NCBI GenBank assembly: GCA_034722055.1
Contig: JAYENL010000154.1
Location: 24,444 to 80,841 of the forward strand
Length of the DNA: 56,398 nt
Direction of reading: 5' to 3'
Source of the DNA: Armatimonadota bacterium
GTDB taxonomy: Bacteria; Armatimonadota; Zipacnadia; Zipacnadales; UBA5352
How positions within the stretch are numbered: the first letter of the stretch is position 1; each line of letters starts with the position of its first letter. A program made the translations under genes and the position numbers. Of this stretch, positions 3,501 through 37,282 are shown piece by piece. Below the pieces are notes generated by a model, which was given only the letters and a program-made list of their open reading frames with translations, was not told where the DNA came from and made no database searches.

Positions 3501-3593
3501 AGCAAGGGGCTGATCTACCTGGTGCAGGAGGGCAATGCGATCCTGGTGCCGCTCTCAGCGTTCGCCGCAGACGATGGGGGTGCGCGCGGATGA
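534..3593 (+). CDS. large secreted protein, possibly a polysaccharide-lyase/heparinase II/III-like fold, carrying a CxxC...CxxC zinc-ribbon-like insert
   Basis: 1019-aa ORF whose N-terminus looks like a signal peptide (MRTARSLLLAAVVAAAVPALRTEAQE). It contains CPNCGQEHY...CANCDQWFP (two CxxC pairs). Its stop overlaps the next start (ATGA at 3590-3593). The family assignment is from memory and weak. Confidence 0.55.
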   Translation: MRTARSLLLAAVVAAAVPALRTEAQEMNTNSESVIVTPQMRANAIANCRRFDWARSYRDRLIAQVEPWMDMSDEQLWRLLPSQQMPRDSGVNRGDGCPNCGQEHYKAPYSPSRWRVDFFEHPWKVRCANCDQWFPANDFAAYYRSALDEQGKFRLGAGDPRYLQPAEGLPAEWVDDGTGVEIDGKKWFFAANYAFRLWQKMLDVTEKMAVVYTLTEDPVYAHKAGVLLDRMADLYPEMDYMPHYRLGMEASTGGSGRGRIQGKIWETWTAQKLSLAYDHIHDALMKDQALVEFSSRMAAAHGTGDKSSPEAIEAHIEDHLLREFIAGVLDGRIRGNPGMHQYAMACAAIALDEPQETEDALDWLFDARGGALPYVLQERLGREGFSNEAALGYSRIPARTLYRSAELLNRYARYRKHDLIRDYPKFRNCYTMCAKVRMIDTYTPNWGDGDKCMNFGTTGMTIPVEMALQGYRIFGTPEIGRELWFANGKGLDNVFAIRPSRGNVAEHVHFHLYEESPEEILADLREDLAEPPGPLASYNSGGYGQAVLQAPWREEPRALGLYYGRMGGHGHHDRLNYLLVAHNVVNTPDMGYPLYCTSSWKKRFAWTDHVISHNTCMVNETTPDDESYSGKTRLFDEAGPVRVADIDGGEVYEGVSTFRRCMVMVDADEARSYVLDLFWVRGGTNHRLIQNGGGPEVTHSGLELIDQPTGTYAGPDVEFGEEYDGQHTSQYAGTGFSYLRDVQRAQPEGDFWVDWRLVEPRREMPEGWEAHLRVHSLSPVDEVALCTGVPPRFKGNPESLRYLLRSRFGEGLSTQFISILEPYAHEPFITGARVLRDDETPEGFVAAVEVELTSGARDVLLVAEREAQMAAGGATMHGRVGLCRFRDGEPETLALIQGTRLAAGGEALTLPSPAIRGRLAGWDDSDPARVLLHLDPDAELPDEVVGKYIIIDNEERSDASFRIEEVLDADTISIGQNSLVERFVDRTDYSKGLIYLVQEGNAILVPLSAFAADDGGARG

Positions 3594-5788
3594 CCCTCAT
3601 CGGCTCGCGCACGAGCATCGCCGCCGCCTGGCTCCTGGCCCTGCTGCTGAGCGTGGGGCAGGCCGGCTGCCAGCAGCCTGTGGACCACGCCTCCATCGAC
3701 GCCGGCGCCACCATCAGCGGACCCCGCAACGCCTCCGGCAGCGCCGACCAGCCGAGGTGCGCCATCGACGGCGAGATCGCCGACGTGGGTCCCTCCCGCG
3801 GCTACTCCTGGGCGTGGCTCGATACCCCCACCGTGGTCACCTTCGCCGAGCCGGCGGTCATTGACACCGTGGAGGTGGTCCTGTCCGAGAGCTACGGACA
3901 GGCCTACAGCTACCGGCTGAGCGTCTCCGCGGACGGTGCCGACTGGCAGGTCGTCGCCGACCTCTCCGATACCCCGGTGCGCGGGCTGCAGATGCACCAG
4001 TTTCAGCCGGTGGAGGCAGAGCGTCTGCGCCTGGAGTTCACCGACACCACGCTGCACGTGCGCAGCTATCACATCGTGGAGATCGCCGCCTGGCACCTGG
4101 GGGAGGAGGTCGCCGTCGGGCCTCTTGGTCGCCGCTTCGCCGATGTCCGGCGGAGGCGCACCATGGAGGCCGTGGGGCTGCTCGGCGCCCAGCCGGCGCA
4201 GGAGGCCCTCAGCGATGACGACCTGCAGCAACGCATGCACCGCATGGAGGACGGGCAGACCTTCCCGCATCAGCTCGCCGATGGGACGAGGGCGCTGATC
4301 GCCCGCGACGGCCATAATACCATCATCGTCATCGACGATGACGGAGACATGGCCGAGGACGCCACCAGCGCCGACTGGGACAGCGACTGCCTGGCGGTGG
4401 ACACCGACGGCGACGGCCTGCTGGAGCGGACCATCGACTACGATGACCTCGACGGCGACGCCGTCGCCGACCGCATGGTCCAGACCTACACCCAGCGCCA
4501 CACCTGGGGGCGAGACCCGTTCATGGTCCTCATACGCGACTTCGACCACGGACCGCTGAGCCTCTGGGCGCTGCACGATTACGGCTACATCCAGGGCCTG
4601 TGCCAGTGGGACTGCGACTTTGCCGGCGACGGGTACTTCGTCATGTTCCGCCGCTCCCGCGAGGGCGATCGCTGGATCGCTGCACTGGAGGCGCCCTTCT
4701 GCTTCTACGATCCCGACGACGATGGCCTTCCCGAGGAGACCATCCGCATCACCGCCACCGACACTCATTTGCGCTCGCTGCGCTACGGCATCAACGCCGA
4801 CAACGATAGCACCGAGGGCCAGCTCTACGACTACGATCTGTCCGTCACCTGCCTCGGTTCGCCAGAGCTGCCGGGTGACGCGGCTGAGACCTTCGTGCAT
4901 CGCAGCGGCGACAGCGCCGGGCCCTTCCTCGCCTGGGAGACGGGCCGGGAGACCGCCCGCGGGCTCGACTGGGAGCGCGCCCTGCTCATCTGGGACGAGA
5001 ACGACCACAACGTCGCCGCCCGGAGGGCCGACCGCGAGCGCTGGGAGGGCATTATCAACGCCCGCTACCGCGACTTCCCGCAGGTGGGCGGCCCGCCCAC
5101 GATGCGCCAGAACAAGCGCTTCGAGCTGGACGCAGACTTCTCGGGCCACATGCACCTCTACTTCTGGCCTGCCGACGGGCGGCTGCACCTGCATGGGGCC
5201 GAGGTCGGCACGCTCCAGGCCGACTACGATTACAACGGGCGTCCGGAGCTGGTCATCGAGTACGCGGATACCGACGAGGACGGCTACTTCGACCAACGCA
5301 CCTTCTCGTACCCAGGGACCGGTCTCCCCGACCGGCGCATGAAGGGCCCGCGCAGCTACGGGCTGGCCGGCGATGACTCCGCGACGTACCCCTATGCCTG
5401 GGAGGCCATCTGCGGCTTCTGGCCGGAGGAGCTGCAGCGCTGGGCCGATGACTGCGCGGATCTCCTGGACGCACTTGACGGGGCGGCGGAGGCTCTCGGC
5501 GTCGAGCCCTTCACCGGGCCCATGGACTTCTACCTGGGCGCCACGGAGCGCGACTTCAAGCACATCGAGCGCCTCCGCGCCAGCCGCGAGTCCCGCCGCT
5601 ACTACCAGGACCTGGCGGTGGAGCTGGGCCTGGCGCACCTGTGCCACGACGCCGAGCAGGCGGGCGCCGGAACGGCTCAGCGCGAGCGAATCTCGTGGGC
5701 CATCCGGCAGTGGCACACCGGGATGCCGGCCACAGCCGCCAGTACGCTGCGGAGCATCGCGGAGATGTCGCAAGCCGGCGGGCCGTAG
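3590..5788 (+). CDS. secreted F5/8 type C (discoidin) domain protein with Asp-rich Ca-binding-like repeats
   Basis: N-terminal signal or lipobox-like segment (LLSVGQAGC). Discoidin-like pattern (AIDGEIADVG...YSWAWLD...YRLSVSADGADWQVVADL). D-rich DxDxDG-type stretches (DTDGDGLLERTIDYDDLDGDAVAD). ATGA start/stop overlap with the upstream gene. Confidence 0.65.
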   Translation: MTLIGSRTSIAAAWLLALLLSVGQAGCQQPVDHASIDAGATISGPRNASGSADQPRCAIDGEIADVGPSRGYSWAWLDTPTVVTFAEPAVIDTVEVVLSESYGQAYSYRLSVSADGADWQVVADLSDTPVRGLQMHQFQPVEAERLRLEFTDTTLHVRSYHIVEIAAWHLGEEVAVGPLGRRFADVRRRRTMEAVGLLGAQPAQEALSDDDLQQRMHRMEDGQTFPHQLADGTRALIARDGHNTIIVIDDDGDMAEDATSADWDSDCLAVDTDGDGLLERTIDYDDLDGDAVADRMVQTYTQRHTWGRDPFMVLIRDFDHGPLSLWALHDYGYIQGLCQWDCDFAGDGYFVMFRRSREGDRWIAALEAPFCFYDPDDDGLPEETIRITATDTHLRSLRYGINADNDSTEGQLYDYDLSVTCLGSPELPGDAAETFVHRSGDSAGPFLAWETGRETARGLDWERALLIWDENDHNVAARRADRERWEGIINARYRDFPQVGGPPTMRQNKRFELDADFSGHMHLYFWPADGRLHLHGAEVGTLQADYDYNGRPELVIEYADTDEDGYFDQRTFSYPGTGLPDRRMKGPRSYGLAGDDSATYPYAWEAICGFWPEELQRWADDCADLLDALDGAAEALGVEPFTGPMDFYLGATERDFKHIERLRASRESRRYYQDLAVELGLAHLCHDAEQAGAGTAQRERISWAIRQWHTGMPATAASTLRSIAEMSQAGGP

Positions 5789-5830
5789 ACGCTCTCGCTC
5801 CGAACACCTGACGCACACGGGGGCTTCGCT

Positions 5831-8800
5831 ATGAGGCGCGTCACGGTTGCACTCATGCTCCTGCTGCTCCCGACGATGGCGGTCGCACAGGAGCCGCGAC
5901 TGCTGTTCTACCTCTCGCTCGACGAGACCGCTCGAGCGGCGTGGGCCGCCGGCGAGACTCCCGTCGGCGGCGCCTCAGCCGCCGATGTCATCCTCTATGA
6001 GCTGGCCGGGCGCTTCGAGGACGGCCGCGTCGGACGGGGCCGGCTGTTTGAGAGGGGTGGGGTGGAGTATCTCGCCGAGGGCAACCTCAACCGCGAGCGA
6101 GGCACGCTCGCATTGTGGGCGAAGATCGGCTGGGACGGCACCCGTGAGGACCTTTACTGCACGTTCTTTGGCATGGACGAGTGGGGGCTGCTCTACAAGT
6201 ACACCGACCAGACCCTCCTCACCTTCGGCTGGATCAAGTCCGACGGGCAGTTCGACTACGGCTGCACCGCCGACATCGCCCGCTGGCGCGCCGGGCAGTG
6301 GCACCACATCGCCATCACCTGGGACGCGCCGGCCGGCGTGCGCCACATCTACCTCGACGGCGCGCTCGCCGCGGAAGGCGGTATCCCCTCGATGGGCGAG
6401 GGCGATCCCCGCATGTCCGTGGGCATCAGCTACACCAACAGCCACCCCGCCCGCTCAGTGATCGATGAGCTCTACATCTGGGACCGGCCGCTGACGGCGG
6501 AGCAGATCGCGCAGGTGCGAGCCGCCGGCCTGGCCGGTGAGCGGGCGTGGGAGCTGCCTCCCGGCGCCGGAGCCGCCGAGGATCAGTTGCAGCCGCCCGC
6601 CGGCGAGAGGCCGCCGCTGCCGGGGCAGGTGGACTGGAGCCTCGATGACGCCGAGCGCCTCTCGAGCGTCACCCGCCTGCGCGTCTGCCTCAACGGCCTC
6701 TGGCGCTTCCACCCGGATGCTGACAGCGATGACGGCTGGTGCCTGCTGCGCGTTCCCGGCGTGTGGACTTCGCCAAGCTACGTGGTGCGCGATGCCGACT
6801 TCCAGCCCGTCAGCCGCTGGGGCGGCAAGCCTCTCCGCGAGTGGCATCGCGCCTGGTACGAGCGCACCTTCGAGCTCCCGGATGACTGGCCCGACGGCCG
6901 GCAGTACGTGCTGGGGCTGGACTCGGTGCGCAGCGTTGGCGAGGTCTTCCTCAACGGCCGGCGCATCGGCCGCGCGCGGGAGTACGAGCGCGCTCGGTTC
7001 GACGTCAGCGAGATGCTCGAGCCCGATGGTGAGAACCTGCTGCAGGTCCACGTGCTGGGGCTGGGCGGAGGCTGGAGCGCCATGCGCGGCATCGACGCCG
7101 ACGTCTGGCTGGAGGCGCGCCCGCCCGGCGGTGTGCCGAAGCTCTCACACGTCGCCCTCCGCCCGCGCGTGAGCCAGGGCCTGCTGGAGGCGGGAGCCTA
7201 CTTCGACCGTGGCGCCGGGCGGGCGGCGGTCCAGGTCGAGATCGCCGACGCTGGCGGCGAGGTCGTCCGATCGCTGACCGGCCCGGTGCAGCCGGTGGCA
7301 GGGGACTCCATCATCCTGGCGATCGAGTGGCCCGATGCGCACCTGTGGACGCCGGCCGACCCCTACCTGTACTCGGCGACGGTCCGCCTGGTCGATGGCG
7401 ATGGCCGTGTCCTGGATGAGCTGCCCCCGGAACGCTTCGGCATGAGGGAGCTCACGATTCGCGACGGGGACTTCTACCTCAACGGTGTGAAGATCCACCT
7501 CGTCGGCCAGGCCTCCCCACCCTTCGGCCAGATCAGCTTCTGCGCGGCGGAGGAGTACATCCGGGAGTGGTATCGGCGCCTCAGAGCGGTGGGCTGCTTT
7601 GCGGTCCGTGAGTACACCGGCGCCTGGCGGGCCGGCTACCGGTGCGTGTGGCGCGAGCTCTACTACGATATCGCCGACGAGATGGGCATGATCATCTTCT
7701 CGCACGTGCCGGGCGCGGGCAACCTCTGGCAGCAGATCGATGATGAGCGCGTGCGCGAGGGCCTGCACCGCCGCATCGCCGACTACGTGGCGCGATACGG
7801 CAACCACGCCTGCTGCGCCATGTGGTTCCAGCACTTCAACACTGGCGCCTACACCGGGGACATCCGCCCGGACTGGATGGATGGCTCTCATCCGCCGGAC
7901 GAGCATCCGGAGATGCGCCATGCCCTTTTCGCCCGCCATGCCGCCATGCGATGGTGCGAGGAGCAGCTTCGGGAGATCGACCGCGACGCGAGGCCCATCT
8001 TTCACCACGCCGCCGGCGACTTCGGCGAGGTCTACACCTGCAACGCCTACCTCAACTTCGACATCCCGCTGCAGGAGCGCGAGGAGTGGCCGTCAGCCTG
8101 GGCGCAGGTGCGCCACAAGCCGCTGATGCCCGTCGAGACCGGCTTCCCCTGCATCCTGAGCTGGTACCAGGAGCGCCACGGTTCGCTCGCCGACGTCTAC
8201 GCCTCGGAGCCGCTGTTCGAGGAGTACGCGGCGGCGACGCTCGGCGACCGCCCGTATGAGGCGCTGCCCGACGACGCAATGGATATCATCAAGCCCGGCG
8301 AGTGGCACTGCAACCTGGATCGGCTGAAGTACGGGCTGCCCAGCTACCAGCAGCTCAAGGAGGTGTGGGGCGAGCGGACGGTGCGCTCCTGGCGCACCTG
8401 GGGGATCTCGCACTGCCAGCACGTGGAGTACCGCGACTGCTGGGAGTACGAGCGGGTGCCGGTGGAACTGTCCCTGCCCGGGCCGAAGCAGTTCGGCCTG
8501 TCCTTCGACGCCGATGAGCCGACGATCCAGCGCGCCACCAGACTCACGCCGCTGGGCGAGGCCATGCAGCGGGCGAACATGCCGGTGCTGGCCTACATCG
8601 CCGGGCCCCCGGACAACTGGCCGGCCAAGGACCACGCCTTCTTCGCCGGCGAGCGCTTCGAGCGGACGCTGGTGGCCATCAATGACCGCTTCGAGCCGCT
8701 GCCCTGCAGGCTGCACTGGGCGCTGCGCGACGCGGACGGGGCGCGGCTGGACGGCGGCTCCCTCCACCTCACGCTGCAGCCAGGGGAGATCAGCCGCACG

Positions 8801-10216
8801 CCTATCTCACTGGTCGCGCCGGAGGTGGCGAGGCGGACAGAGCTGACGATGACCCTGGACCTCAGAGCAAACGGGCGTAGGCTTTCCGAGGACGAGCTGC
8901 CAGTGCAGGTGTGGCCGAGGCCGCCGCGGCCGGAGGTCGCGGAGGCGCGCGTGGGACTTATCGACGCCGGCCACGGCACCGCCGGGGCGCTGCGGGAGGC
9001 GGGCGTGGCGGCCGAGCCGGTCGGGCCCGCGACCGACCTGCAGCGGCTGGACGTGCTGATCGTGGGCGCGAGGTCCTTCGACGCGCACCTGCTCGGCGAG
9101 CTGCACGCTCAGGAGGCAATGCAGGGCGGCCTGCGCGTGATCGTCTTCGAACAGACACAGCCCTACGGCGGGCTGCTGCTGGATGACCCCAACGCCCGGC
9201 ACGTCTTCATCCGCGCGCCCGAGCACCCCCTGCTGGCCGGCCTGACCGACGCCGATCTGGCCGACTGGCGCGGCCAGAGCACGCTGACCGAGCCCTACCC
9301 TGTGGCCGAGGACCTGGAGGGGCGCTACCCCGAGGAGTTCTGGCGGTGGAGCAACAACGGCACCGTGGCCAGCTTCGCCTTCGAAAAGCCCCAGCGGGGC
9401 GGGTTCGAGGTGCTGGCCGATTGCAGCTTCGACAGCATGTACACCCCGCTGCTGGCGTGGCGCATCGGCCGCGGCCGGGCGCTGCTCTGCCAGCTTGATG
9501 TCACCAGCCGCTACGGGCGCGACCCCGTCGCCACACTGCTCGTGCATCGGATGCTGGAGTGGGCCGCTGGCGCCGGCCTGGCGCCCGAGCCGGGAGGCGT
9601 GGCCTACCTGGGCGGCGAGCAGGGCCGCGCGCTGCTGTGGGAGCTGGGCTGCGAGGTGGAGCGTGTACCGTCCTCGGCCGGGGCGGCGAATGCGGCGCTG
9701 TTGGTCATCGGCGAGGTCGAGGACGCGACAACGCTCTCCACCGCGCCCCGGCCGCCAGCCCTGATGCTGCTCCCCCAGGCCCTGCCGGACGTCGCCGAGG
9801 CGCTGGGGCTGGCGACTGAGCCGGCGCACTTCTTCCGCCTGCAGCGGCCCCCGACGCCGAATCCTGCCTTCCGCGGGCTCTGTGCGGCGGACCTGTATCT
9901 GAAGCAGTGGGTGGAGGCGCCGGCGCTGGTCGGCGAGGACTTGGCCGTGACTGCACCGGCGGTCGCGGGCCGAACCACGGTCGGCGGCTCGACGGTCTAC
10001 ATCTGCGGCATCGACCCCGGCGTGATCCAGGGCCAGCGCCAGCGCGCCAAGGCCCTCCGGCTGGTCGCCACGATCCTCAGCAACGCCGCCGCCGAGGCCA
10101 ACGTATCGCTGCCAGCACTGGATATCGCCGCCGGTTCCGTGGAGGTCGCCTCGGAGGGCTCGCCGTACGCTCTGGAGGCCCTCACCTACAATCCCTACGA
10201 GTACCGCCGGTGGTAG
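5831..10216 (+). CDS. giant secreted LamG/ConA-like + glycoside hydrolase family 2-like multi-domain protein
   Basis: 1461 aa, signal peptide MRRVTVALMLLLLPTMAVAQE. N-terminal LamG-like jelly-roll (WHHIAITWDAPAGVRHIYLDGAL...DELYIWDRPLTAEQI). Followed by GH2-like sugar-binding and TIM-barrel segments (LNGLWRFHP..., FLNGRRIGRAREYERARFDVSEML, GMIIFSHVPG...). Assignment is from motif memory only. Confidence 0.7.
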   Translation: MRRVTVALMLLLLPTMAVAQEPRLLFYLSLDETARAAWAAGETPVGGASAADVILYELAGRFEDGRVGRGRLFERGGVEYLAEGNLNRERGTLALWAKIGWDGTREDLYCTFFGMDEWGLLYKYTDQTLLTFGWIKSDGQFDYGCTADIARWRAGQWHHIAITWDAPAGVRHIYLDGALAAEGGIPSMGEGDPRMSVGISYTNSHPARSVIDELYIWDRPLTAEQIAQVRAAGLAGERAWELPPGAGAAEDQLQPPAGERPPLPGQVDWSLDDAERLSSVTRLRVCLNGLWRFHPDADSDDGWCLLRVPGVWTSPSYVVRDADFQPVSRWGGKPLREWHRAWYERTFELPDDWPDGRQYVLGLDSVRSVGEVFLNGRRIGRAREYERARFDVSEMLEPDGENLLQVHVLGLGGGWSAMRGIDADVWLEARPPGGVPKLSHVALRPRVSQGLLEAGAYFDRGAGRAAVQVEIADAGGEVVRSLTGPVQPVAGDSIILAIEWPDAHLWTPADPYLYSATVRLVDGDGRVLDELPPERFGMRELTIRDGDFYLNGVKIHLVGQASPPFGQISFCAAEEYIREWYRRLRAVGCFAVREYTGAWRAGYRCVWRELYYDIADEMGMIIFSHVPGAGNLWQQIDDERVREGLHRRIADYVARYGNHACCAMWFQHFNTGAYTGDIRPDWMDGSHPPDEHPEMRHALFARHAAMRWCEEQLREIDRDARPIFHHAAGDFGEVYTCNAYLNFDIPLQEREEWPSAWAQVRHKPLMPVETGFPCILSWYQERHGSLADVYASEPLFEEYAAATLGDRPYEALPDDAMDIIKPGEWHCNLDRLKYGLPSYQQLKEVWGERTVRSWRTWGISHCQHVEYRDCWEYERVPVELSLPGPKQFGLSFDADEPTIQRATRLTPLGEAMQRANMPVLAYIAGPPDNWPAKDHAFFAGERFERTLVAINDRFEPLPCRLHWALRDADGARLDGGSLHLTLQPGEISRTPISLVAPEVARRTELTMTLDLRANGRRLSEDELPVQVWPRPPRPEVAEARVGLIDAGHGTAGALREAGVAAEPVGPATDLQRLDVLIVGARSFDAHLLGELHAQEAMQGGLRVIVFEQTQPYGGLLLDDPNARHVFIRAPEHPLLAGLTDADLADWRGQSTLTEPYPVAEDLEGRYPEEFWRWSNNGTVASFAFEKPQRGGFEVLADCSFDSMYTPLLAWRIGRGRALLCQLDVTSRYGRDPVATLLVHRMLEWAAGAGLAPEPGGVAYLGGEQGRALLWELGCEVERVPSSAGAANAALLVIGEVEDATTLSTAPRPPALMLLPQALPDVAEALGLATEPAHFFRLQRPPTPNPAFRGLCAADLYLKQWVEAPALVGEDLAVTAPAVAGRTTVGGSTVYICGIDPGVIQGQRQRAKALRLVATILSNAAAEANVSLPALDIAAGSVEVASEGSPYALEALTYNPYEYRRW

Positions 10217-12371: not shown

Positions 12372-12400
12372 GGAGGGGCCGGACCACCGTCCGGCCCGCC
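12372..12400. repeat. REP-like palindromic hairpin GGAGGGGCCGGACCACCGTCCGGCCCGCC (9-bp stem, 4-nt loop) in a convergent intergenic region
   Basis: The same 29-mer (C/T variable in the loop) recurs at ~33226, ~33431 and 44334. This copy is flanked by the shared context TTGCCGCGCCGT. Confidence 0.6.
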
Positions 12401-12411
12401 GTTTCTTGGCA

Positions 12412-14331
12412 TTACCCGATGTCGATGTGCAGCTTGCGGTAGAGCTCGCCGGGCAGCAGCGCGCCGAAGGCGCCCCACAGCAGGCCCGCCACGAACAGGT
12501 GCCCGAAGGCGATGCCCAGAAACAGCGGCACCAGCCGCCGGTAGGTCCCGGCCCCGCCCAGCTTCACCACCAGTGACTTCACCACCCACACGGCCAGGAA
12601 CGGCCCCCACAGCAGGTAGCCGTAGCTGGTGGCCAGTGCGTACCCCAGCGGGTGCACGGGCAGCCGCAGGAACTGATGCCGCAGCGCGGAGAGGGCGGTC
12701 ACCACCGCCGCCCCACCTGCCGCGAAGCCCGTCGCCAGCCGCTGCGGCGGCGCCGGGCTGTCGTACATCCCCGACAGCAGGTCGAACTCCTGCCGAGCCA
12801 GCGTCGTCCGGTATCCCCCGGCGATCGTCCCGCCCTCCAGCACGTTGGCACCGTACTGGTAGAACGCCTGCAGGTGCATGGCGTAGGCCAGCGGGAGGCC
12901 CACCACGAAGGCGATCACCAGCGCGGCCACGATCTCCCGGCGGCGGGCCCGCATCCTATCGCCCAGCTCCAGGCTCTCCACCTGGAAGGCCATCAGCCCC
13001 GGGAAGTAGCCGCGGCAGAGGAAGTTCATGATGGACATGATGGTCAGCGACTGAAAGCCGCCACGCGCCCATGGCGCCGAGCCGGTGGCCTCCAGAATGA
13101 GCTTCTTGGCCTCGCCAAAGGGAAACGCCCAGTTCGTGGGCACGCCGGTCTCCGCCCGCACGCGGGTGAAGGTGATGGCGACAGCCAGCATCACGCCGAA
13201 GAACAGCGCCGCCAGGCCAAGGTGCATGCCCGCCGCTCGCGCCCACACGAGCATCCCCGCCAGCCCGGCCGCCCCAAGGACGTATGCCCAGCCACGACGC
13301 GCGTCGCCCGCCTCCGCGCGCCCCATCAGCCCCTGCAGCGCCTCCCCCAGCGAGCGCCGCGCCGACCACACCAGCAAAACGGCCATCGCCACGTAGGCGC
13401 CGACGCTCTGCCGCATGGTGAACGGGAAGCCCGGCGGCTCGTAGCCCACCGCCGTTCCGCCCACCGACAGCAGTTGCACCAGCAGAAAGAAGGCCCACGT
13501 CGATCCCAGGATCTCCAGCGGCACAAGGTAGCCGAAGCCCAGGAACTCCGGGCGGTGGTAGAAGCGAACGGCACCCATTGCGCTCCAGGGGCGCTCGGTG
13601 AAGAGGCTCCCGACCGGGTAGGTCAGACCCAGCGCCGGGAGTGCGGGGTTGAGCGCCTGCGCGATGTTGGTGCCGTCGAAGAGCGCCGCCAGGCCGAAGC
13701 CGATCCACATCAGCGGGTCCCGAAGCATCGGCAGGCGCGAGACGGCGCCCTCCCGGCCTACAAGCTCCACCGCGAATGTGGCCACCGGGTAGGTCAGCCG
13801 GTCGTGCTCCGTCCACGGCCGGCGCAGCAGCACCGCCACCGCCAGCAGCAGCGCGAAGAAACAGCCCAGCAGCAGCGCCCAGGAGGCCAGCGGCTGCAGC
13901 CAGGCGTCCCAGGGCACGCGCTCGTTCGCGGCCCCCTCGAAGTAGGCCTGGATCGCGGCGTCATCGCTCGGCGCCACCCAGCCAGGCACCAGCTTGGCAA
14001 GCTCCGCGTAGTTGTTGGGCGGCTCCGCGAAGTAGGGCAGGGCCGTCAGCGACGGCAGCAGCGGCCGGACGATCCCGAGGCTCGTCAGCGGGATGCCCAC
14101 CAAGACGATGATGTAGGCCACCGCGATCTCCGATGCCGCCAGCACGCGCCGACGCCGCAGCCACGCCAGCAGCCGGTCCAGGGCAATCAGCGCCAGCAGC
14201 GCCGCCAGGGCTGGCCCGGAGGGCACGCTGTTGTCGATGTTCGCCCCGAAGGTGATCAGCGAGGCGTAGCGAATCCACGCCACGCCGACCACCAGCAGCG
14301 CGACCCCCAGTGTCGTGGCGCGCAGACTCAT
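12412..14331 (-). CDS. large polytopic integral membrane protein of unknown family (paralog of 35300..37282)
   Basis: ~640 aa from MSLRATTLGVALLVVG, with many hydrophobic helices. Segments align with the second paralog: YFEGAANERVPWDAWLQPLASWAL vs FYEGLRSGAAMPWRPWLQALAAWLP; RRPWTEHDRLTYPVATFAVELV vs RRQWVDNEKLSFPLTVLPVELA; RDPLMWIGFGLAA vs ADPIMWIGFAIPT. Confidence 0.7.
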   Translation of the reverse strand: MSLRATTLGVALLVVGVAWIRYASLITFGANIDNSVPSGPALAALLALIALDRLLAWLRRRRVLAASEIAVAYIIVLVGIPLTSLGIVRPLLPSLTALPYFAEPPNNYAELAKLVPGWVAPSDDAAIQAYFEGAANERVPWDAWLQPLASWALLLGCFFALLLAVAVLLRRPWTEHDRLTYPVATFAVELVGREGAVSRLPMLRDPLMWIGFGLAALFDGTNIAQALNPALPALGLTYPVGSLFTERPWSAMGAVRFYHRPEFLGFGYLVPLEILGSTWAFFLLVQLLSVGGTAVGYEPPGFPFTMRQSVGAYVAMAVLLVWSARRSLGEALQGLMGRAEAGDARRGWAYVLGAAGLAGMLVWARAAGMHLGLAALFFGVMLAVAITFTRVRAETGVPTNWAFPFGEAKKLILEATGSAPWARGGFQSLTIMSIMNFLCRGYFPGLMAFQVESLELGDRMRARRREIVAALVIAFVVGLPLAYAMHLQAFYQYGANVLEGGTIAGGYRTTLARQEFDLLSGMYDSPAPPQRLATGFAAGGAAVVTALSALRHQFLRLPVHPLGYALATSYGYLLWGPFLAVWVVKSLVVKLGGAGTYRRLVPLFLGIAFGHLFVAGLLWGAFGALLPGELYRKLHIDIG

Positions 14332-14500: not shown

Positions 14501-15739
14501 CTACTCCTCCGGCACGTCGATCACGTAGACGCTCCGGCGGTCCGGGATGTACTCCCCATCCTCTGTGCGACGCCCGTAGTCGATGCGGTAGAGGATCACG
14601 TAGAGGCGGCCGTCCTCATCCTGACGGACCTCGAAGTTCGAGAGCTGCACGATCTCGCTGTCGATCTCCGGGTTGCGAGTGTCAATGACCGTCACCGTGT
14701 CGCGGATCAGCCCCAGCGTCTCCTCGTCGATCTCCCCGATGACGAGGGGATAGCGCGGATGGTTGCCGCCCGGGTTCTCATCGCAGGTGTTCCCGAGCCA
14801 GTAAAGCCGCTCGTTGGCGAGTGAGCGCACCAGTACCGAGTGGGCCGACGGCGAGTAAAGTGGGGTGCCGTCCGAGTAGGTCCACGCCTGGGGCTGGGTC
14901 CAGGTGCGGCACCAGTCGCGCGAGGTGCAGATCCACTTGCGCCCGGGCAGCTCCGGGCGCTTGTCGTTGGAGCCGCGGCTGATCATCAGGAACTCGCCGG
15001 GACGCGTCGTCTCGATGATCGAGGGCTCGTCCAGGCCGCGGGTTGAGAGCTCGTGGTCAATGCGCACCACCTCGCCGAGTTCCCAGATGACGTCCGTGGC
15101 GTCATCCACCCACTGCCCGATGAGCACTGCAGCGTCGGAGAACGTGAACGCCCCCGCCGGGTTGTAGTACTCCCCGTTCTCGTCCAGCGGCGGGATCATG
15201 ATGGGCAGCATGATCTCGCCGTTGCTGGCCTCGATCATGAGCATGCCCGACGAGATCATGGCGCAGTTCTTGCCCACGCGAACCGGCTCCAGCGGGTGCA
15301 TGAGGTCGTACTGGTCGCCCTGCTGGATGAGGGGCTTGACGGGCCCGAAGCTCCGCCCATCGTCGGCTGAGACCTGGTAGGCGAGCTTGTAGCGCAGGTA
15401 GGCCTCCAGGTTGTCCGTGCCATGCCGGGTGAGCATGAGCACTCGCAGCACCGAGTCGCCACCCGTCTGCCGCACCACGCGCTGCGAGCAGACGTCGTAG
15501 GGATCGTCGGGGTATCCCGCCGAGACCTGCCTGGGAGCGGCCTCGATGCCGGCGCCGGGTGGCGGCGGCAGCTCCGGCAGTTCCACGTCAGGGATCTCGC
15601 CCTGCGGGTCGAAGTAGTTCACGTAGCGGCCCACCACACGCAGCCCCTCGCCCCCGCCCCCGTCATCCGCGGTCACCGAATGGGCCACCATCAGCAGAGC
15701 GGCAACGGCCATCGAGAGCATCAGTGCTCGTGCCATCGG
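14501..15739 (-). CDS. secreted BNR-repeat / sialidase-like (GH33-like) glycosyl hydrolase
   Basis: Signal peptide MARALMLSMAVAALLMVAHSVTA. BNR-like SxDxGxS/TW motifs (SADDGRSFGP; TSRDWCRTW). Start chosen at the Met heading the signal peptide rather than the upstream extension. Confidence 0.6.
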   Translation of the reverse strand, partial: PMARALMLSMAVAALLMVAHSVTADDGGGGEGLRVVGRYVNYFDPQGEIPDVELPELPPPPGAGIEAAPRQVSAGYPDDPYDVCSQRVVRQTGGDSVLRVLMLTRHGTDNLEAYLRYKLAYQVSADDGRSFGPVKPLIQQGDQYDLMHPLEPVRVGKNCAMISSGMLMIEASNGEIMLPIMIPPLDENGEYYNPAGAFTFSDAAVLIGQWVDDATDVIWELGEVVRIDHELSTRGLDEPSIIETTRPGEFLMISRGSNDKRPELPGRKWICTSRDWCRTWTQPQAWTYSDGTPLYSPSAHSVLVRSLANERLYWLGNTCDENPGGNHPRYPLVIGEIDEETLGLIRDTVTVIDTRNPEIDSEIVQLSNFEVRQDEDGRLYVILYRIDYGRRTEDGEYIPDRRSVYVIDVPEE

Positions 15740-15940
15740 AGTCTCCTGTTCGCGCGTATGATCCACAGGATACCGGCGCCGCGCGCCGGGACGGGATGAC
15801 GGCAACGGCGGCAATCTGCATTGCCGTCCCTGTCCTTACCGTTGGCGTGAGTCGTTCTCCTGAATATCTTGTCCATCCTGTTCCCCCGTCGTTGCCCGAG
15901 CAGGTCGCCACGTTGCTCCCATACACCGCGCAACGCGATG

Positions 15941-18287: not shown

Positions 18288-19409
18288 ATGACGCGAGGTA
18301 TGCCATCAGTGGAAATCCCCCTGGTTGATCTCCAGACCCAGTACCAGCACATCCGCGAGGAGGTCCTGGAGGCGTTCGACGAGGCCCTCACCGGCATGCA
18401 GCTCGTCCTGGGTCCCAATGTGCAGGCGTTCGAGAGGGAGTGGGCCGAGTTCTGCGATGTCGAGCACGCCGTCGGCGTGGGCAGCGGCACGGAGGCGCTG
18501 CACCTGCTGCTCCGTGCCGCCGGAGTCGGTCCCGGCGATGAGGTCATCACAGTCTCCTTCACATTCATCGGCACCATCGAGGCCATTCTGCACGTGGACG
18601 CCACGCCCGTGCTGGTGGACATCGACCCCGAGACGTTCTGCATCGATCCCGAGCAGGTGGCCCGGCGGATCACGCCCAACACCCGCGCCGTCATCCCCGT
18701 GCACCTCTACGGCCATCCCGCGGACATGGACGGGCTGCGCGAGGCCGTGGGCGATCGCGACGTGATGCTGCTGGAGGATGCCGCCCAGGCCCATGGGGCC
18801 CAGTACCGGGGCCGCCGGGTGGGCGGGATCGGTCGCGGGGCCATCTTCAGCTTCTACCTCAGCAAGAACCTGGCCGCGTACGGCGAGGCCGGCGCCGTCA
18901 CCACCGACGGCGCCGACCTGGAGGACCGCGTCCGCTACCTGCGGGTGCATGGCAGTCGGGAGAAGTACGTCCACCGCTACGTGGGCTACAACAGCCGCAT
19001 GGACGAGCTGCAGGCGGCGGTGCTGCGCATCAAGCTCCGGCGCCTGGCGGACTGGAATGAGGCCCGCCGCCGCCACGCCACGCGCTACAACCAGAACCTG
19101 GCCGACCTCGACGTGCAGCTCCCGGTCGAGAGGCCCTGGGCGCGGCACGTCTATCACGTCTACACCATCCGCACCCCGCGCCGGGACGAGCTGGCGGCTG
19201 CCCTGAAGGAGGCGGGCATCGGCCACGCCATCCACTACCGCGTCCCCTCTCACCTGCAGGAGGCCATGGCGCACCTCGGCTACGGCCCCGGCTCCCTCCC
19301 GGAGACGGAGCGCGCCGCCGACCAGGTACTCTCCCTCCCCATGTACCCCGAGCTCACCAACGAGCAGATCGACCGCGTCTGCGAGGTCGTCCACGGCGTG
19401 CTGGGCTGA
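18288..19409 (+). CDS. DegT/DnrJ/EryC1/StrS-family sugar aminotransferase (second copy)
   Basis: LVDLQTQYQHIREEVLEAFDEAL, GSGTEALHL, VIPVHLYGHPADMD, LLEDAAQAHGA, FSFYLSKNLAAYGEAG: canonical DegT/PseC/ArnB-type motifs. The exact start (18288 vs 18300) is uncertain. Confidence 0.85.
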   Translation: MTRGMPSVEIPLVDLQTQYQHIREEVLEAFDEALTGMQLVLGPNVQAFEREWAEFCDVEHAVGVGSGTEALHLLLRAAGVGPGDEVITVSFTFIGTIEAILHVDATPVLVDIDPETFCIDPEQVARRITPNTRAVIPVHLYGHPADMDGLREAVGDRDVMLLEDAAQAHGAQYRGRRVGGIGRGAIFSFYLSKNLAAYGEAGAVTTDGADLEDRVRYLRVHGSREKYVHRYVGYNSRMDELQAAVLRIKLRRLADWNEARRRHATRYNQNLADLDVQLPVERPWARHVYHVYTIRTPRRDELAAALKEAGIGHAIHYRVPSHLQEAMAHLGYGPGSLPETERAADQVLSLPMYPELTNEQIDRVCEVVHGVLG

Positions 19410-19813: not shown

Positions 19814-20266
19814 CTACAGCTCGTAGACCTCCTGCCCGGGGATGACCGTGATTCCGGCCTCCTCGAGCAGCCCAAGTGTCGTGTCCAGCACCGAATCAGC
19901 CACCTTGAACAGCACCACCGCATCGCCCGCGATGGTGATGAAGAAGGCGTACATGTACTCCACGTTGATCTCCTCGGCCTGCAGATGCTCCAGCACCTCG
20001 CCCAGCCCGCCGGGACGGTCCGGGATGCGCAGCGCCAGCACCCCGGTGCTGCCCACCGAGAAGCCCTCGCTCTGCAGCACGTCCACGGCCGCGTCCGGGT
20101 CATCCACGATCAGCCGCAGGATGCCGAAGTCCGAGGTGTCGGCAATGCACAGCGCCCGGATGTTGATGTCATGCGCCCCCAGCGTCTGACACACCTCCGC
20201 GAGCCTGCCCGACTTGTTCTCGAGAAAGACCGAGACCTGCTTGGCCAGGATGTCGCCGCTGGTCAT
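19814..20266 (-). CDS. ACT-domain protein (the small regulatory partner that usually follows phenylacetate-CoA ligase genes)
   Basis: 150 aa with two ACT-like beta-alpha-beta-beta-alpha-beta halves (VFLENKSGRLAEVCQTLGAHDINI...; ...LRIPDRPGGLGEVLEHLQAEEINV). Lies 3 bp downstream of PaaK. Confidence 0.75.
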   Translation of the reverse strand: MTSGDILAKQVSVFLENKSGRLAEVCQTLGAHDINIRALCIADTSDFGILRLIVDDPDAAVDVLQSEGFSVGSTGVLALRIPDRPGGLGEVLEHLQAEEINVEYMYAFFITIAGDAVVLFKVADSVLDTTLGLLEEAGITVIPGQEVYEL

Positions 20267-20269
20267 CGC

Positions 20270-21571
20270 TCACGCCTCCTCACGCTTGTCAACGACTCGC
20301 TTGGCCTTGCCGGCGAAGCGCTCGATCGTCTTCGGCTCGACAAGCTTCACGTCCATCCGGATACCGATCGCCGAGCTCAGCCGCTCCCGGATCTTCTCCT
20401 CGATGGCCTCCAGCTTGCGCACCTCGTCCGAGAACATGCTCGGGGAGACCTCCACCTGCACCTCCAGGTTGTCCAGCCGCCCCTCCCGGGTGAGCACAAG
20501 CTGGTAGTGCGGCTCCACCTCCTCGATCTTCAGCAGGACCTCCTCGATCTGCGACGGGAAGACGTTCATGCCGCGGATGATGAGCATGTCATCGGTGCGC
20601 CCGGTGATGCGCTCCATCCGCGGCTGGGTGCGCCCGCACTCGCAGAGCTCGTAGTCCAGGCGGGAGATGTCCCTGGTGCGGAAGCGGATGAGGGGGAAGG
20701 CCCGCTTGGTGATGCAGGTGAAGACCAGCTCGCCCCTCTCTCCGGGCGGGAGCTGCTGGCCGGTGTCGGGGTCGATGATCTCGGGGATGAAGTGGTCGTC
20801 GAAGACGTGCAGGCCTCCCTTGGCCTCACACTCGGCCGAGACGCCGGGGCCGATGATCTCCGTCAGCCCGTAGATGTCGTGGGCCGACAGCCCCAGGCGC
20901 TCCTCGATGCTCTCCCGCGCGCCCTCGCTCCACGGCTCGGCGCCGAAGAGCCCGGACTTGAGGTCGATCCGGCTCAGATCGAAGCCCATCTCCTCCGCCT
21001 GGTCCACGATGGTGAGGGCGTAGGAGGGCGTGCAACAGAGGATGGAGCTGCCCAGGTCCTCCATGAGCATGAGCTGGCGCTCGGTGTTGCCGCCGGAGAC
21101 GGGCACCACCAGGCAGCCCATCCGCTCGCCGCCGTAGTGCAGCCCCAGGCCGCCGGTGAACAGCCCGTAGCCGTAGGCGTTGTGCAGCACGTCGTGGCTG
21201 GTGCCGCCGCCGCAGGCGATGGTGCGGGCGATGGTCTCCGCCCAGATGCTGATATCCTCCGGCGTGTACCCCGCGATCACCGGCTTGCCCGTGGTGCCCG
21301 AGGAGGCGTGGATGCGCACGCACTCCTCCGGCGGCACCGCGAACAGGCCGAAGGGGTAGGTGTCGCGCAGATCGTCCTTGGTGGTGAAGGGCAGGTGCTG
21401 CAGGTCATCCAGGGACCGGATGTCCTCCGGCGCGATGCCCTTCTCCGCGAACCTGTCGCGGTACCATGGGACGTTAACGTTGAGCCGAGCCACTGTCTCC
21501 CGAAGCCGCCGTACCTGCAGCTCGGCGCGCTGCTCGGGATCCATGCACTCATAGAACGGGTCCCAGATCAT
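20270..21571 (-). CDS. paaK: phenylacetate-CoA ligase (PaaK-family adenylate-forming enzyme), copy 1
   Basis: [14 protein letters not shown]... [10 protein letters not shown] (AMP-binding P-loop), YGLTE, and C-terminal [21 protein letters not shown] Shine-Dalgarno before the ATG at 21571. The listed 658-aa ORF is a read-through artefact across iorB. Confidence 0.88.
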
Positions 21572-21651
21572 CTCCGACGCCTCCTTGTGACTGAGTGACG
21601 GCCCGTCGTCGAATGGCCATCGACCGCCCACCGCGCACCTGCCCGGCGCGG

Positions 21652-22242
21652 TCAGTCGGACTTCATCAGCTCCTGCCCCGCCCTGAAGGCCTCGAGGTTT
21701 ACGTCTACCGCTTCGGGTTTGAGCACCAGCCGCAGCGCCCGCTCCCACGCATCCCCCGGAAGCTCCACCAGCGTCGAGAGCGCCCCCAGCATGATGGTGT
21801 TGGCCGCCCGCGGCTCGCCCAGCTCCGTCGCCGCCTGTGCGGCCGCGATAACCGTCACCTCCCGGCCGCTGCCCAGCACACGCTCCAGGACGTCCTCGGG
21901 GTAGCTGAAGCCCTCCAGGTTCACGGTGACCGGCACGATGCGGCGCTCCTCGATCAGCACTGTGGCGTCCGGCGCGGTCTGCCCTATCTGCCGCAGACCC
22001 TCCAGCGGCTCGAAGGCCAGCATGATGCCGGCCGCCCCCTCGGGGATCAGCGGGGAGGCCACCTGCCCGTCGGGGCTGAACCGCACGTAGCTGTTGACGC
22101 TCCCCCCGCGCTGGCTCATGCCGTGGACCTCGCTCTTCTTGACCTCCCAGCCGGCCAGCCGGCAGGCCTGCGAGAGCACCGTGCTGGCGGTGATGATGCC
22201 CTGCCCCCCGACCCCGGTCAGAAGCACATTCGTTACCATCAC
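21652..22242 (-). CDS. iorB: indolepyruvate:ferredoxin oxidoreductase beta subunit (IorB)
   Basis: ~196 aa, N-terminal [14 protein letters not shown] Rossmann-like motif of the POR-gamma/IorB family. 4-nt overlap with iorA (ATGA on the minus strand). Confidence 0.85.
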
Positions 22243-24026
22243 GCATTGCCCTCCCCGGAGCCCTCAGGCGCCTTCAGGGCATCCACTGGACACACCTGCG
22301 CGCACATCAGGCAGCCGGTGCACAGCGCCGGGTCGATCTGCGGCAGCGGCCTCTCGCCACCATCGTCCACGCCTGACAGCGCCGGACAGCCGATGCGGAT
22401 GCACTGCCCGCAGCGGATGCACGTCTCCACGTCCAGCTCCGGCACCGGAGCCCGCTCCCGCACCGTGAGCACGCACTCACGCCTGGCGATCACCACCGAG
22501 GGCTCAGGGGAGGCCATCGCCTCCCGCAGCGCCCCCTCGGTGGCGGCCATGTCGTAGGGATCGACCACCCGCACATCCTCGATGCCGATGGCCCGCGCCA
22601 GCCTCGCGAAGTCCAGCTCCCGGCCTGGCATTCCCGAGAGCGTCTCACCAACTCCGGGATGCACCTGCCCGCCGGTCATGGCCGTGGTGCGGTTGTCCAG
22701 GATCACCGCCGTGCTCACGCCGGCGTTGTAGGCGATGTTCACCAGCCCGGTGATCCCCGAATGCGTGAAGGTGGAGTCCCCGATGACCGCCACCACCGGC
22801 GCCTCGTGGCCGCGGATCTTCTGGATGCCGTGGGCCTCCCCGATCCCGGCGCCCATGCACAGGCAGGTGTGCACCGCCTCCAGCGGCGGGAGCGTCCCCA
22901 GCGTGTAGCAGCCGATGTCGCCGGTCACGTATGCCCCCAGCTTCCGCAGCGCCACGAAGACGCTCCGGTGCGGGCAGCCGGGGCACAGCGTCGGCGGCCG
23001 CGGCGGCAGGTCCTCATCCGGCTCCCCCTCCGGCGGCCGCTCCCCCGTGATCATCTCCCGCACTCTGCCGGGGGTCAGCTCACCGATGCGGAAGCGATCA
23101 TCGACCGGCTCCACCTCCACGCCCAGCGCCATGACCTGCTCGGTGAGGTAGGGGTCAAGCTCCTCCACCACGCAGAGCCGCTCCAGCTCCTCGGCGAAGG
23201 CCCGAATGCGGTCGGCCGGCAGCGGCCACACCAGCCCCAGCTTCAGGAATGACGCCGTCGGGAAGGCCTCCTTGGCGTACTGATGGGCCACGCCGGCGGC
23301 GATGATGCCCAGCGAGCTGTCGCCCATCTCCTCCCGGTTCAGCTCTGTCTCCTCGGCGAAGGCCAGCAGCTTCCGCGTCCGCTCCGCCATCGCCACGCGT
23401 CGCCGCCGGGCGTGCGCGGGGATCATGACGTACTTCTCGGGGCACGGCTCCAGCTCGCCGGCCGGCTCCACGTCCTGCCGCTCGCCGACCTCCACGAGGC
23501 CGTCGGAGTGCGAGATGCGCGTCACGGGCCGCACCAGCACGGGGACGTCGAATCGCTCGCTGAGCTCGAAGGCCTGCATCGTCAGGTCCCGCGCCTCCTG
23601 GCTGTCGGCGGGCTGGAGCATGGGGACCTTCGCCGCGCGGGCGTAGTTGCGATTGTCCTGCTCGTTCTGCGAGCTGTGCATGGACGGGTCGTCGGCGGTG
23701 ACGATCACCAGCCCGCCCCCCACGCCGGTATACGAGAGCGTGAACAGCGGGTCGGCCGCCACGTTCAGCCCCACGTGCTTCATGGTCACCAGCGCGCGGG
23801 CGCCGGCGATGGAGGCCCCGGCCGCCACCTCCAGCGCTACCTTCTCGTTCACCGACCACTCCACGTAAACCCCGCCCAGCTCCTTCAGCGCCGGCAGAAT
23901 CTCCGACGACGGCGTCCCCGGATAGCCGCTGCCCAGACGGACCCCAGCCTCCCAGGCCCCGCGGGCGATGGCCTCGTTCCCCGACAGCAACAGGACGTCA
24001 GAGGCGCGCTTCGCGGTCTCTGCCAT
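22239..24026 (-). CDS. iorA: indolepyruvate:ferredoxin oxidoreductase alpha subunit (IorA), TPP and 2x[4Fe-4S]
   Basis: 595 aa. TPP-binding region (GDIGCYTLG...). C-terminal [13 protein letters not shown]...[12 protein letters not shown] double-ferredoxin motif. Confidence 0.88.
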
Positions 24027-25330: not shown

Positions 25331-25575
25331 CGTACGCGCGCCTTCCGTCGGGGATGTGCGCGTCCATCCGCTGGTCGCTTCGACTCGCTGCAGCGTGCGC
25401 CCTCGCCGTGTAGGTGACTGAGCGACGGCAGTGTTCCCGAAGCAGCCGGAGGTTGGCACTTCGCCCTCCGCACCTCCGCCACCTTCCCCACGATGCATGT
25501 GAGGAGGGAGGTGCGCCGCCAGATGCCTGGAAATGCCAATCAGGGCGATAGAGCGGCGTCCGGGAGGGGGTCGGC

Positions 25576-35299: not shown

Positions 35300-37282
35300 T
35301 CACGGCCACGGAAAGAACGGCGCTGGCGTTCTCCAGATGCCGGAGATGGTGGCCCAGAGCACGGCCTGGGAGAACTCGCCCAGGATGAGGCCGAAGAAGA
35401 ACGGCCGCAGCCGCAAGTACACGCTCATGCCCCCGTAGCGGATCACCCCGCCCTTGATCAGCCACGCCACCAGCATCGGGAACCAGAACACGATCATGCT
35501 CCACGAGCCCGAGAGCGCGAAGCCCAGCGGCGAGAGCGGCCACCACACATACTGCATGCGCAGGACGCTGAGCACCAGCGTCACCACCACCCCCGAGCCG
35601 AAGAAGGCCAGCAGCCGGGGGTCATACTCATCCCCCGCCTGCAGGATCGGCGCGAAGTAGCGCACCCCCAGCAGGGGATTGCCGCGGTAGACGTAGCCGT
35701 ACATGCCGATGGCCCCGTGCTCGTAGGGCAGCCGCAGGTGCAGCCAGCCCCCGAAGCCCAGCGCCACCGCCAGCGCCACGCCCAGCGCCCCGAACAGGTG
35801 CCGACGATCCAGGCCGGTCGCGTCGGACATCTTCAGCGAGTCCAGCAGCGTGGAGAGCAGGTTGCCGCGCAGATCGCGGGTGAAGACCGCATCGGCGAAG
35901 GCCAGGGAGGTGAGGGTGCTCGGCCGCAGGGACTTCATGGGCGTGCCCAGGCGCACCAGGTCCACGGGGCGGAAGCTGGTCTCGGTCATCAGCAGCCCCG
36001 CCTCGGCCACGCTGCGGGCCATCACCACGCAGACCACGCCCAGGAAGACGATGGTCTCCAGCGCGGCCATCCACCAGCTCATCCCCAGCATCGCGAACCA
36101 CCCCGTGGCGACGATCACCGCCGCGGCCAGGCCGATGAGCTCAACGCGCGGCGGCAGCGCCGGCCGGGCCTCGGCCTCATGGTCCGCGGCGTGCTCGCCG
36201 CCGCCCATCGCGGCCCGCCACAGGGCGGACAGATGCGGGCGCGCGGAGCGGATGAGGTAGCCGGTGAGCACCAGGTATGCGCCGGCCACCTGGTAGCCGT
36301 TCCACAGTGAGGTGGGGTAGAGGGGCATGGGCTCGAAGGTTGCTCCGAAGGCCGAGAAGGCGATGTTCTGGATGCGGATGATGACGTAGAAGGCCCACAG
36401 GGAGAAGAGGACCTGGGCGGGGAGGAAGTACCCAAAGCCCACGGCGGCCATGGAGGTGTAGGCGGTGGTGTAGCCCAGGTCCCGCCACGGCCGGCCCATG
36501 GCGTTGAAGACGAGCTGGTTGAGGCGGTATTGGACGGGGATCTGGGGCACGGACGGCCGCAGGCCGTGGATGCCGTTGACGGTGAAGACGATGGTGGGGA
36601 TGGCGAAGCCGATCCACATGATGGGGTCGGCGAAGACCGAGCGCGCCCACCGGGAGTGCTCGGCCAGCTCCACCGGCAGGACGGTGAGGGGGAAGGAGAG
36701 CTTCTCGTTATCCACCCACTGCCGGCGGATGATCGACGCCAGGCAGAAGTAGGCCACGAAGAGGGCCAGCACGGGGGGCAGCCAGGCCGCCAGGGCCTGC
36801 AGCCACGGCCGCCAGGGCATGGCTGCGCCGGAGCGGAGGCCCTCGTAGAACGCGGAGGCGATCCACTGCCCGGACTCGCCCTCCACGTCGAAGGGCACCG
36901 CCCACTGGGGGATGTGCTCGAAGAAGAGCTGGGCCCAGTCGTTGGCGGGGTTGGCGTAGTAGTTGACGCAGATGAGCGCCGGGATCCACCGCTCCAGCAG
37001 CCCGCGGCTCATGGTCAGCGCGCCCACCAGGGTCATGGTGTAGACCACGATGACCTCGTGCGCGCGCAGGGCGAGGCGAGGCACGAGGGCCCCGATGGCG
37101 AGATTCGCCATGACCACCGCCAGCAGGATGCCGATGGCGGTGGGGGCGAACTGGCAGATGGCGATCTGGATGCTGCCCACCGTCATCTCGGCCCAGGAGA
37201 CCATCCAGCAGGCGGCCGCCGCGCAGGCGGCGCCGATGACGACGGCCCGGACGGACAGCGGGCGGCGCGGGATCGCGATCAC
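35300..37282 (-). CDS. large polytopic integral membrane protein of unknown family (paralog of 12412..14331)
   Basis: 660 aa with many TM helices. Shares several colinear motifs with the first paralog (see 12412..14331). Ends 25 bp upstream of the methyltransferase start on the same strand. Confidence 0.7.
   Translation of the reverse strand: MIAIPRRPLSVRAVVIGAACAAAACWMVSWAEMTVGSIQIAICQFAPTAIGILLAVVMANLAIGALVPRLALRAHEVIVVYTMTLVGALTMSRGLLERWIPALICVNYYANPANDWAQLFFEHIPQWAVPFDVEGESGQWIASAFYEGLRSGAAMPWRPWLQALAAWLPPVLALFVAYFCLASIIRRQWVDNEKLSFPLTVLPVELAEHSRWARSVFADPIMWIGFAIPTIVFTVNGIHGLRPSVPQIPVQYRLNQLVFNAMGRPWRDLGYTTAYTSMAAVGFGYFLPAQVLFSLWAFYVIIRIQNIAFSAFGATFEPMPLYPTSLWNGYQVAGAYLVLTGYLIRSARPHLSALWRAAMGGGEHAADHEAEARPALPPRVELIGLAAAVIVATGWFAMLGMSWWMAALETIVFLGVVCVVMARSVAEAGLLMTETSFRPVDLVRLGTPMKSLRPSTLTSLAFADAVFTRDLRGNLLSTLLDSLKMSDATGLDRRHLFGALGVALAVALGFGGWLHLRLPYEHGAIGMYGYVYRGNPLLGVRYFAPILQAGDEYDPRLLAFFGSGVVVTLVLSVLRMQYVWWPLSPLGFALSGSWSMIVFWFPMLVAWLIKGGVIRYGGMSVYLRLRPFFFGLILGEFSQAVLWATISGIWRTPAPFFPWP

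Follow-up and report, generated by a model that had tools for sequence, protein, structure and literature searches.

Two diverged DUF6785/DUF6784 membrane proteins of an Armatimonadota bacterium are probable transporters with a predicted OPT/Yellow-Stripe fold

Characterised members of the OPT family (PF03169; TC 2.A.67) are cation:solute symporters for uptake, and they are known to transport oligopeptides of 3-8 residues, glutathione, and complexes of metals with nicotianamine or phytosiderophores (PMC3061005). Folates are also an OPT substrate (PMC12687453), and work cited in PMC7340319 describes Cys-Gly uptake by a prokaryotic member, CptA of Campylobacter jejuni. Prokaryotic OPT proteins have 16-17 transmembrane segments (TMS) and a length of 524-706 amino acids (aa) (PMC3061005); NPG and KIPPR are motifs reported for many OPT proteins. 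Only one structure has been solved in the superfamily, and very few of its bacterial members have been characterised. Barley HvYS1 (PDB 7WSR/7WST), of the YSL clade, is a eukaryotic Fe(III)-phytosiderophore:H+ symporter whose fold was without structural homologues at the time the structure was determined, and for which a proton-coupled elevator mechanism with core and scaffold domains was proposed (PMC9691689). Here we describe two genes, copy 1 and copy 2, encoding polytopic membrane proteins of the Pfam family DUF6785/DUF6784 in a 56,398-nucleotide stretch of the genome of an Armatimonadota bacterium (assembly GCA_034722055.1, contig JAYENL010000154.1, positions 24,444 to 80,841), the whole of which is referred to as the window. 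We consider it likely that each gene encodes a stand-alone inner-membrane secondary active transporter with the OPT fold, which would act as a proton-coupled elevator-type uptake carrier.

Structure prediction and fold comparison, proposed as a check of the original prediction for this locus, gave YS1 as the best match. The AlphaFold2 (AF2) model of copy 2, obtained from a 31-sequence alignment, is all-helical and of high confidence, with a predicted local distance difference test (pLDDT) score of 88.7 and a predicted template modelling (pTM) score of 0.90. A Foldseek search with the AF2 model returned 7wsr (E=2e-9) and 7wst (E=6e-9), with a probability of 1.00 and TM-scores of 0.65/0.71; apart from these two entries there was no match below E=0.02. 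The YS1 match spans 525 residues in both independent models, and the YS1-type fold expected of the OPT superfamily, with core and scaffold domains, is present in both predicted structures. According to the DSSP strings, the AF2 model of each copy contains about 17 helices of at least 15 residues, in agreement with the earlier claim of more than 12 TMS. A simple hydropathy scan found only 11-14 segments, a shortfall explained by the amphipathic or re-entrant nature of several helices. With about 17 long helices and ~640-660 aa, both proteins fit the TMS count and length of prokaryotic OPT members (PMC3061005). Sequence identity with HvYS1 in the structural alignment is only 11-13%, and HMMER detects no similarity between HvYS1 and the window proteins.

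The original prediction could not assign the proteins to a family, a position overtaken by a Pfam profile search, in which both copies matched DUF6785 (PF20581) and DUF6784 (PF20580) in N-to-C order. The scores were 360.5 and 74.4 bits for copy 1, and 435.7 and 98.5 bits for copy 2 (gathering cutoffs 25 and 26.4 bits, respectively), so that by profile comparison both are full-length, high-scoring members. This family is functionally unannotated, and a protein identical to copy 1 (100%, 639 aa) is already named “DUF6785 family protein [Armatimonadota bacterium]” by NCBI. When 1.84 billion cluster representatives (50% identity clusters) were searched with a profile, 6,796 of them matched at E<=1e-3 and 2,446 did so at E<=1e-30. 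Named relatives belong to Armatimonadota (Zipacnadia, Chthonomonadaceae, Abditibacteriales), candidate division WS1 and Poribacteria; the window, too, derives from a metagenome-assembled genome of Armatimonadota. The subfamily of copy 1 is the rarer one, with only 31 search matches. One member, P0243 (1463 aa), contains three DUF6785 stretches and a C-terminal DUF6784, an apparent tandem duplication/fusion of two DUF6785-type modules.

The sequence link between this family and OPT is provided by three intermediate proteins (P0361, P0362 and P0368), through which homology to OPT is transitive. They match DUF6785 at 1e-146 to 1e-153, and DUF6784 as well, and score 31.4, 31.5 and 28.5 bits, respectively, against PF03169 (cutoff 25.8 bits; E about 1e-7). 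These proteins did not surface until a later search, which started from another subclade and returned members with a precomputed PF03169 match; rescanning confirmed it. The match is collinear, with residues 332-629 corresponding to profile positions 335-619 of 623 (the C-terminal half), and a full-length alignment of P0361 with copy 2 shows 30% identity (E=2e-101). Since the OPT match runs through the region equivalent to DUF6784, Pfam's division into DUF6785 and DUF6784 appears to be an artefact of model building. Taken together, the predicted fold and the transitive sequence evidence indicate that DUF6785/DUF6784 is a very divergent branch of OPT.

The genomic context of the family was surveyed in 92 fetched loci, in all of which genes were called, and 146 dereplicated families of neighbours at up to two positions on either side were scanned against Pfam. 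They match 153 Pfam families, none more than 4 times, and the 25 most recurrent neighbour families of the 92 loci include no glycosyltransferase, Wzx/Wzy flippase/polymerase, polysaccharide-synthesis, FtsX or ABC family. As no neighbour partner recurs, the gene behaves as a stand-alone unit, as a single-component carrier should. The neighbourhoods of copy 2 orthologues are conserved within clades only. In Zipacnadia-like metagenome-assembled genomes (MAGs), genes for a PAS histidine kinase and response regulators lie upstream on the same strand, and an M28 peptidase gene is convergent downstream. The neighbours are Maf/KduI and a racemase-like gene in Poribacteria, while elsewhere a Bat operon, RNase HII, LpxB or prephenate dehydrogenase is found nearby. 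Those of copy 1 orthologues also vary: AraC with BNR_4, an esterase, or a phosphodiesterase with an SDR protein.

Two further arrangements were observed among these loci. In one Armatimonadota clade (L028, L038 and L048) the DUF6785 gene directly follows a same-strand Bat-type aerotolerance operon encoding BatA/VWA, BatD and a TPP-free TPR+SH3 BatE-like protein. In P0258 (L092:6001-12363), an uninterrupted metagenomic open reading frame (ORF) of 2120 aa, a complete DUF6785+DUF6784 module is joined to MacB_PCD and FtsX permease domains; FG-GAP/ASPIC genes lie on either side of the ORF, and there is no ABC ATPase gene within 6 kb.

Several results weigh against the assignment to OPT or against the function proposed. 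Neither copy matches PF03169 itself at E<=1, and at E<=10 none of 70 diverse family members (alignment A3) does so, only the two DUFs being found; thus a few DUF6785 members exceed the PF03169 cutoff, whereas the window proteins and the 70 sampled members do not. No NCBIfam model, those for OPT at E<=1 included, matches either copy, and none of the NCBIfam OPT models matches the bridging proteins at E<=10. Profiles of 31 or 124 family members fail to reach the HvYS1 sequence at E<=10, and a search of the sequences of solved structures with P0361 alone found nothing HvYS1-related at the same threshold. The OPT motifs NPG and KIPPR are missing from both copies; among 124 family members, NPG occurs anywhere in the sequence in nine and KIPPR in none. 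An internal repeat, which would be expected, is not demonstrable, as hhalign comparison of the N-terminal and C-terminal halves of the 124-sequence alignment gave E=0.035 and a probability of 1.5%. The fold of both copies is known from predictions only, the genomic context yields no consistent clue to the substrate, and a literature search found no paper mentioning DUF6785 or DUF6784 and no experimental study of any member. Profile hidden Markov models (HMMs) thus assign the proteins to the two DUFs, not to a characterised transporter family of known substrate, and the link to OPT is remote. Peripherin-2, the sole match in a sequence search of solved structures, was dismissed as spurious.

By analogy with barley YS1, each protein would be made up of two domains, each composed of inverted repeats: a mobile core for transport and a scaffold for dimerisation. 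Co-transported protons would power an elevator-type movement of the core, which would ferry a bound small organic solute through the membrane, most likely in the direction of uptake. Peptide-like or amino-acid-derived compounds with a mass of a few hundred daltons would be the likeliest substrate class; examples are oligopeptides, metal chelates and compounds resembling glutathione or folate. Circumstantially, peptide uptake would suit the organism, because peptidases (M28, M48 and S8) and an indolepyruvate:ferredoxin oxidoreductase/aryl-CoA-ligase-like module are encoded in the window. Acidic residues are conserved at E76/E68 (96%; copy 2/copy 1 numbering), E193/D177 (100%) and position 290/273 (89%), and R423/R390, the invariant G429/G396 and K610/K585 are likewise conserved family-wide. 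The charged residues among them, several of which lie within predicted helices, are candidates for sites of ion or substrate binding or of coupling.

The two proteins had been predicted to be diverged paralogues encoded on the minus strand about 21 kb apart, and the ORFs are present as described. Copy 1 (residues 1-625) aligns with copy 2 (residues 9-649) at 28% identity and 46% positives (E=3e-58; BLASTP with compositional adjustment). This end-to-end alignment, far above chance, identifies them as genuine paralogues at the sequence level, and it contains the colinear motifs that had been quoted, namely VPWDAWLQPLASW / MPWRPWLQALAAW, RRPWTEHDRLTYP / RRQWVDNEKLSFP and DPLMWIGF / DPIMWIGF. When 124 family sequences were clustered, the deepest split separated 39 from 85 of them, with copy 1 and copy 2 on opposite sides. 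Since the copies straddle this split, and since copy 2 is closer to its Poribacteria orthologues (44-47% identity) than to copy 1 (28%), the duplication is considered ancient and older than these phyla. The spacing of ~21 kb therefore looks incidental and does not appear to reflect a recent local duplication, and the argument that duplication within 25 kb points to functional specialisation finds no support. Multiple paralogues per locus or genome occur elsewhere too (L032, L089), in varied, often catabolic, contexts. Copy 2 departs from the family consensus at Q290 (acidic in the family) and S584 (His in the family), and copy 1 at D52 (Asn in the family) and E455 (Lys in the family). These departures at otherwise conserved polar positions are compatible with differing specificities, and paralogues from anciently separated subfamilies probably differ in substrate.

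The DUFs are already catalogued in Pfam and the proteins so named by NCBI; the new element is the placement of DUF6785/DUF6784 in the OPT/Yellow-Stripe superfamily, which was not found stated in the literature searched. Recent OPT censuses rest on PF03169 or BLASTP (bioRxiv 10.64898/2026.08.27.747422) and would for that reason have missed this family. The placement extends the superfamily and gives a functionally unannotated family, found mainly in little-studied phyla (Armatimonadota, WS1 and Poribacteria, the last being sponge symbionts), a concrete hypothesis, namely that of a proton-coupled elevator-type uptake carrier. It should also improve metabolic reconstruction from such MAGs, e.g. 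of their capacity for nutrient uptake. It is a useful annotation for a large DUF, yet a mechanistically ordinary one that reveals no new mechanism. A bolder proposal, which we regard as unlikely, is that DUF6785/DUF6784 forms a third deep, prokaryote-only OPT branch beside PT and YSL, which has been missed by all OPT censuses because it lies below the PF03169 HMM. In those Armatimonadota and Poribacteria that degrade glycans, this branch would carry a substrate class new to OPT (e.g. amino-sugars or other products of glycan breakdown), and the two subfamilies represented in the window would differ in specificity.

The proteins could share the OPT fold and yet serve in a non-canonical role, as an exporter, as a transceptor or sensor for a two-component system, or as a subunit of an FtsX/MacB-type machine, instead of as uptake carriers. 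The position of the Zipacnadia-like copy 2 orthologues, directly downstream of the histidine kinase and response-regulator genes, the MacB_PCD-FtsX fusion of P0258, and the extreme divergence from OPT, with loss of its motifs, are all consistent with such a role. We nevertheless consider it improbable. The two-component neighbours are confined to one clade, with different genes in their place in this window and in other phyla, the fusion is the only one of its type among the 150 representatives listed, FtsX and ABC families are absent from the 25 most recurrent neighbour families, and all characterised OPT members are uptake symporters (PMC3061005).

The original prediction took sugar-modifying neighbours as a functional clue and suggested transporters, flippases or polymerases for a cell-surface glycan; such neighbours are not conserved across the loci surveyed. 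Its view of the proteins as uncharacterised and polytopic stands, and of its options that of a transporter is favoured by the evidence, whereas fold and context speak against a glycan flippase or polymerase. That the copies act on a lipid-linked cell-surface glycan as a flippase, polymerase or ligase (Wzx/MOP, Wzy, O-antigen ligase or GT-C type) would accord with their large size and polytopic nature, with the DegT-family aminotransferase gene next to copy 1 (convergent with it, as had been described; PF01041, 1e-80) and a second DegT gene at 18288-19409, and with the membrane protein gene divergent from copy 2. The latter encodes a 542-aa protein with a faint match to the NCBIfam putative glycosyltransferase LA_3751/LA_3752 (E=6.9e-6; 25 bits vs a cutoff of 200), which may be GT-C-like. 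This gene is kept beside a copy 2 orthologue in only one other locus (L017, 53% identity), and a hairpin lies between copy 1 and the adjacent DegT-like gene. The search for a MOP/MATE, Wzy/O-antigen-ligase or GT-C fold in the copies failed, as did that for a conserved glycan-biosynthesis neighbourhood, and we judge this interpretation very improbable. Equally hard to credit is the view that the proteins are ion channels or exchangers, CLC-like or of another architecture, and that the match to YS1 is a prediction artefact of a generic helical bundle: its sole support is a set of partial, low-Z CLC matches, which cover less than 1/4 of the protein and do not figure at the top of the list for copy 1, against a YS1 match of 525 residues in both models and the Pfam bridge to OPT.

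Features of the window are summarized in Table 1. Codon-position GC content of both ORFs is typical of genes in a window of 68.6% GC (GC at third codon positions, GC3, 0.91 in copy 1 and 0.96 in copy 2), which indicates that they are real genes. A GGGAG motif lies just ahead of the ATG of copy 1. A longer alternative ORF, starting at 14427, would give 671 aa; the 639-aa version is favoured because the identical NCBI protein has this length and the orthologues have 638-640 aa. Orthologues of copy 2 with 659 aa share 83% identity with it at 100% coverage. Promoter scans gave no match.

Table 1. Coordinates of copy 1, copy 2 and other features of the window (positions within the 56,398-nucleotide stretch).
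Feature	Position	Strand	Description
Copy 1 CDS (coding sequence)	12412..14331	-	639 aa, ATG start, TAA stop; DUF6785/DUF6784; predicted OPT/YS1-fold transporter, rarer subfamily
Copy 1 DUF6785 region (aa 3-494)	12850..14325	-	PF20581, E=1.6e-107, profile positions 2-498 of 498
Copy 1 DUF6784 region (aa 536-628)	12448..12726	-	PF20580, E=9.1e-21; inside C-terminal helices of the model
Copy 2 CDS	35300..37282	-	660 aa, GTG start, TGA stop; DUF6785/DUF6784; predicted OPT/YS1-fold transporter, widespread subfamily (Armatimonadota, WS1, Poribacteria)
Copy 2 DUF6785 region (aa 11-523)	35714..37252	-	PF20581, E=2.7e-130
Copy 2 DUF6784 region (aa 560-654)	35321..35605	-	PF20580, E=2.8e-28
GC-rich hairpin	12376..12397		9-bp stem, 8 G-C pairs; in 147-bp gap between convergent DegT-like gene and copy 1; terminator-like scan, consensus match only
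Predicted exported protein	14501-15814	-	signal-peptide-like N-terminus after an internal Met; weak BNR_2 match (sialidase-like beta-propeller), E=5e-4
Putative aromatic amino-acid fermentation cluster	19814-25582	-	ACT-domain protein; indolepyruvate/pyruvate:ferredoxin oxidoreductase-like subunits (TPP plus 4Fe-4S, 595 aa; POR, 196 aa); phenylacetate-CoA-ligase-like AMP-binding enzyme (518 aa)
M28 peptidase gene	31453-33165
Restriction-modification (R-M) pair	33217-35275		MjaI-like endonuclease (+; PF09568, 2.8e-30) converging on and overlapping N4/N6 DNA methylase (-; PF01555, 1e-44)
Polytopic membrane protein	37424-39052	+	542 aa; divergent from copy 2; no Pfam match, no PDB sequence match
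Large secreted-type glycan-degradation proteins	534-10216 and 40449-50741		heparinase II/III-like, F5/8 type C, LamG+GH2 (1461 aa), sulfatase, GFO/IDH/MocA oxidoreductase, LamG+FAD_oxidored+F5/8C (1162 aa)
PEP-CTERM subtilase	52059-54056

The hairpin is probably a terminator common to copy 1 and the DegT-like gene, and these two genes would then be separate transcription units. The gene for the BNR_2-like exported protein shares the strand of copy 1 and is located 170 bp upstream of it; none of the 92 fetched loci encodes a homologue of its product, for which a PDB sequence match is also lacking. A recurring link between the family and BNR/sialidase-like genes, suggested by this gene and by loci L001-3 and L084/85, was rejected as too sparse (2/146 clusters).

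A methyltransferase gene and a membrane protein gene do flank copy 2, as had been described, but the methylase is not a sugar-modifying gene: its partner is an MjaI-like restriction enzyme, which makes it part of an R-M system. The pair looks like an insertion, since copy 2 and the M28 peptidase gene, which flank it here, adjoin directly in a related MAG locus (L015). The methylase is also found in L039, the closest relative.

The oxidoreductase and ligase cluster looks like a module for fermentation of aromatic amino acids, which suggests a lifestyle based on peptides or amino acids. The large secreted-type proteins encoded towards both ends of the window are typical of a polysaccharide degrader.

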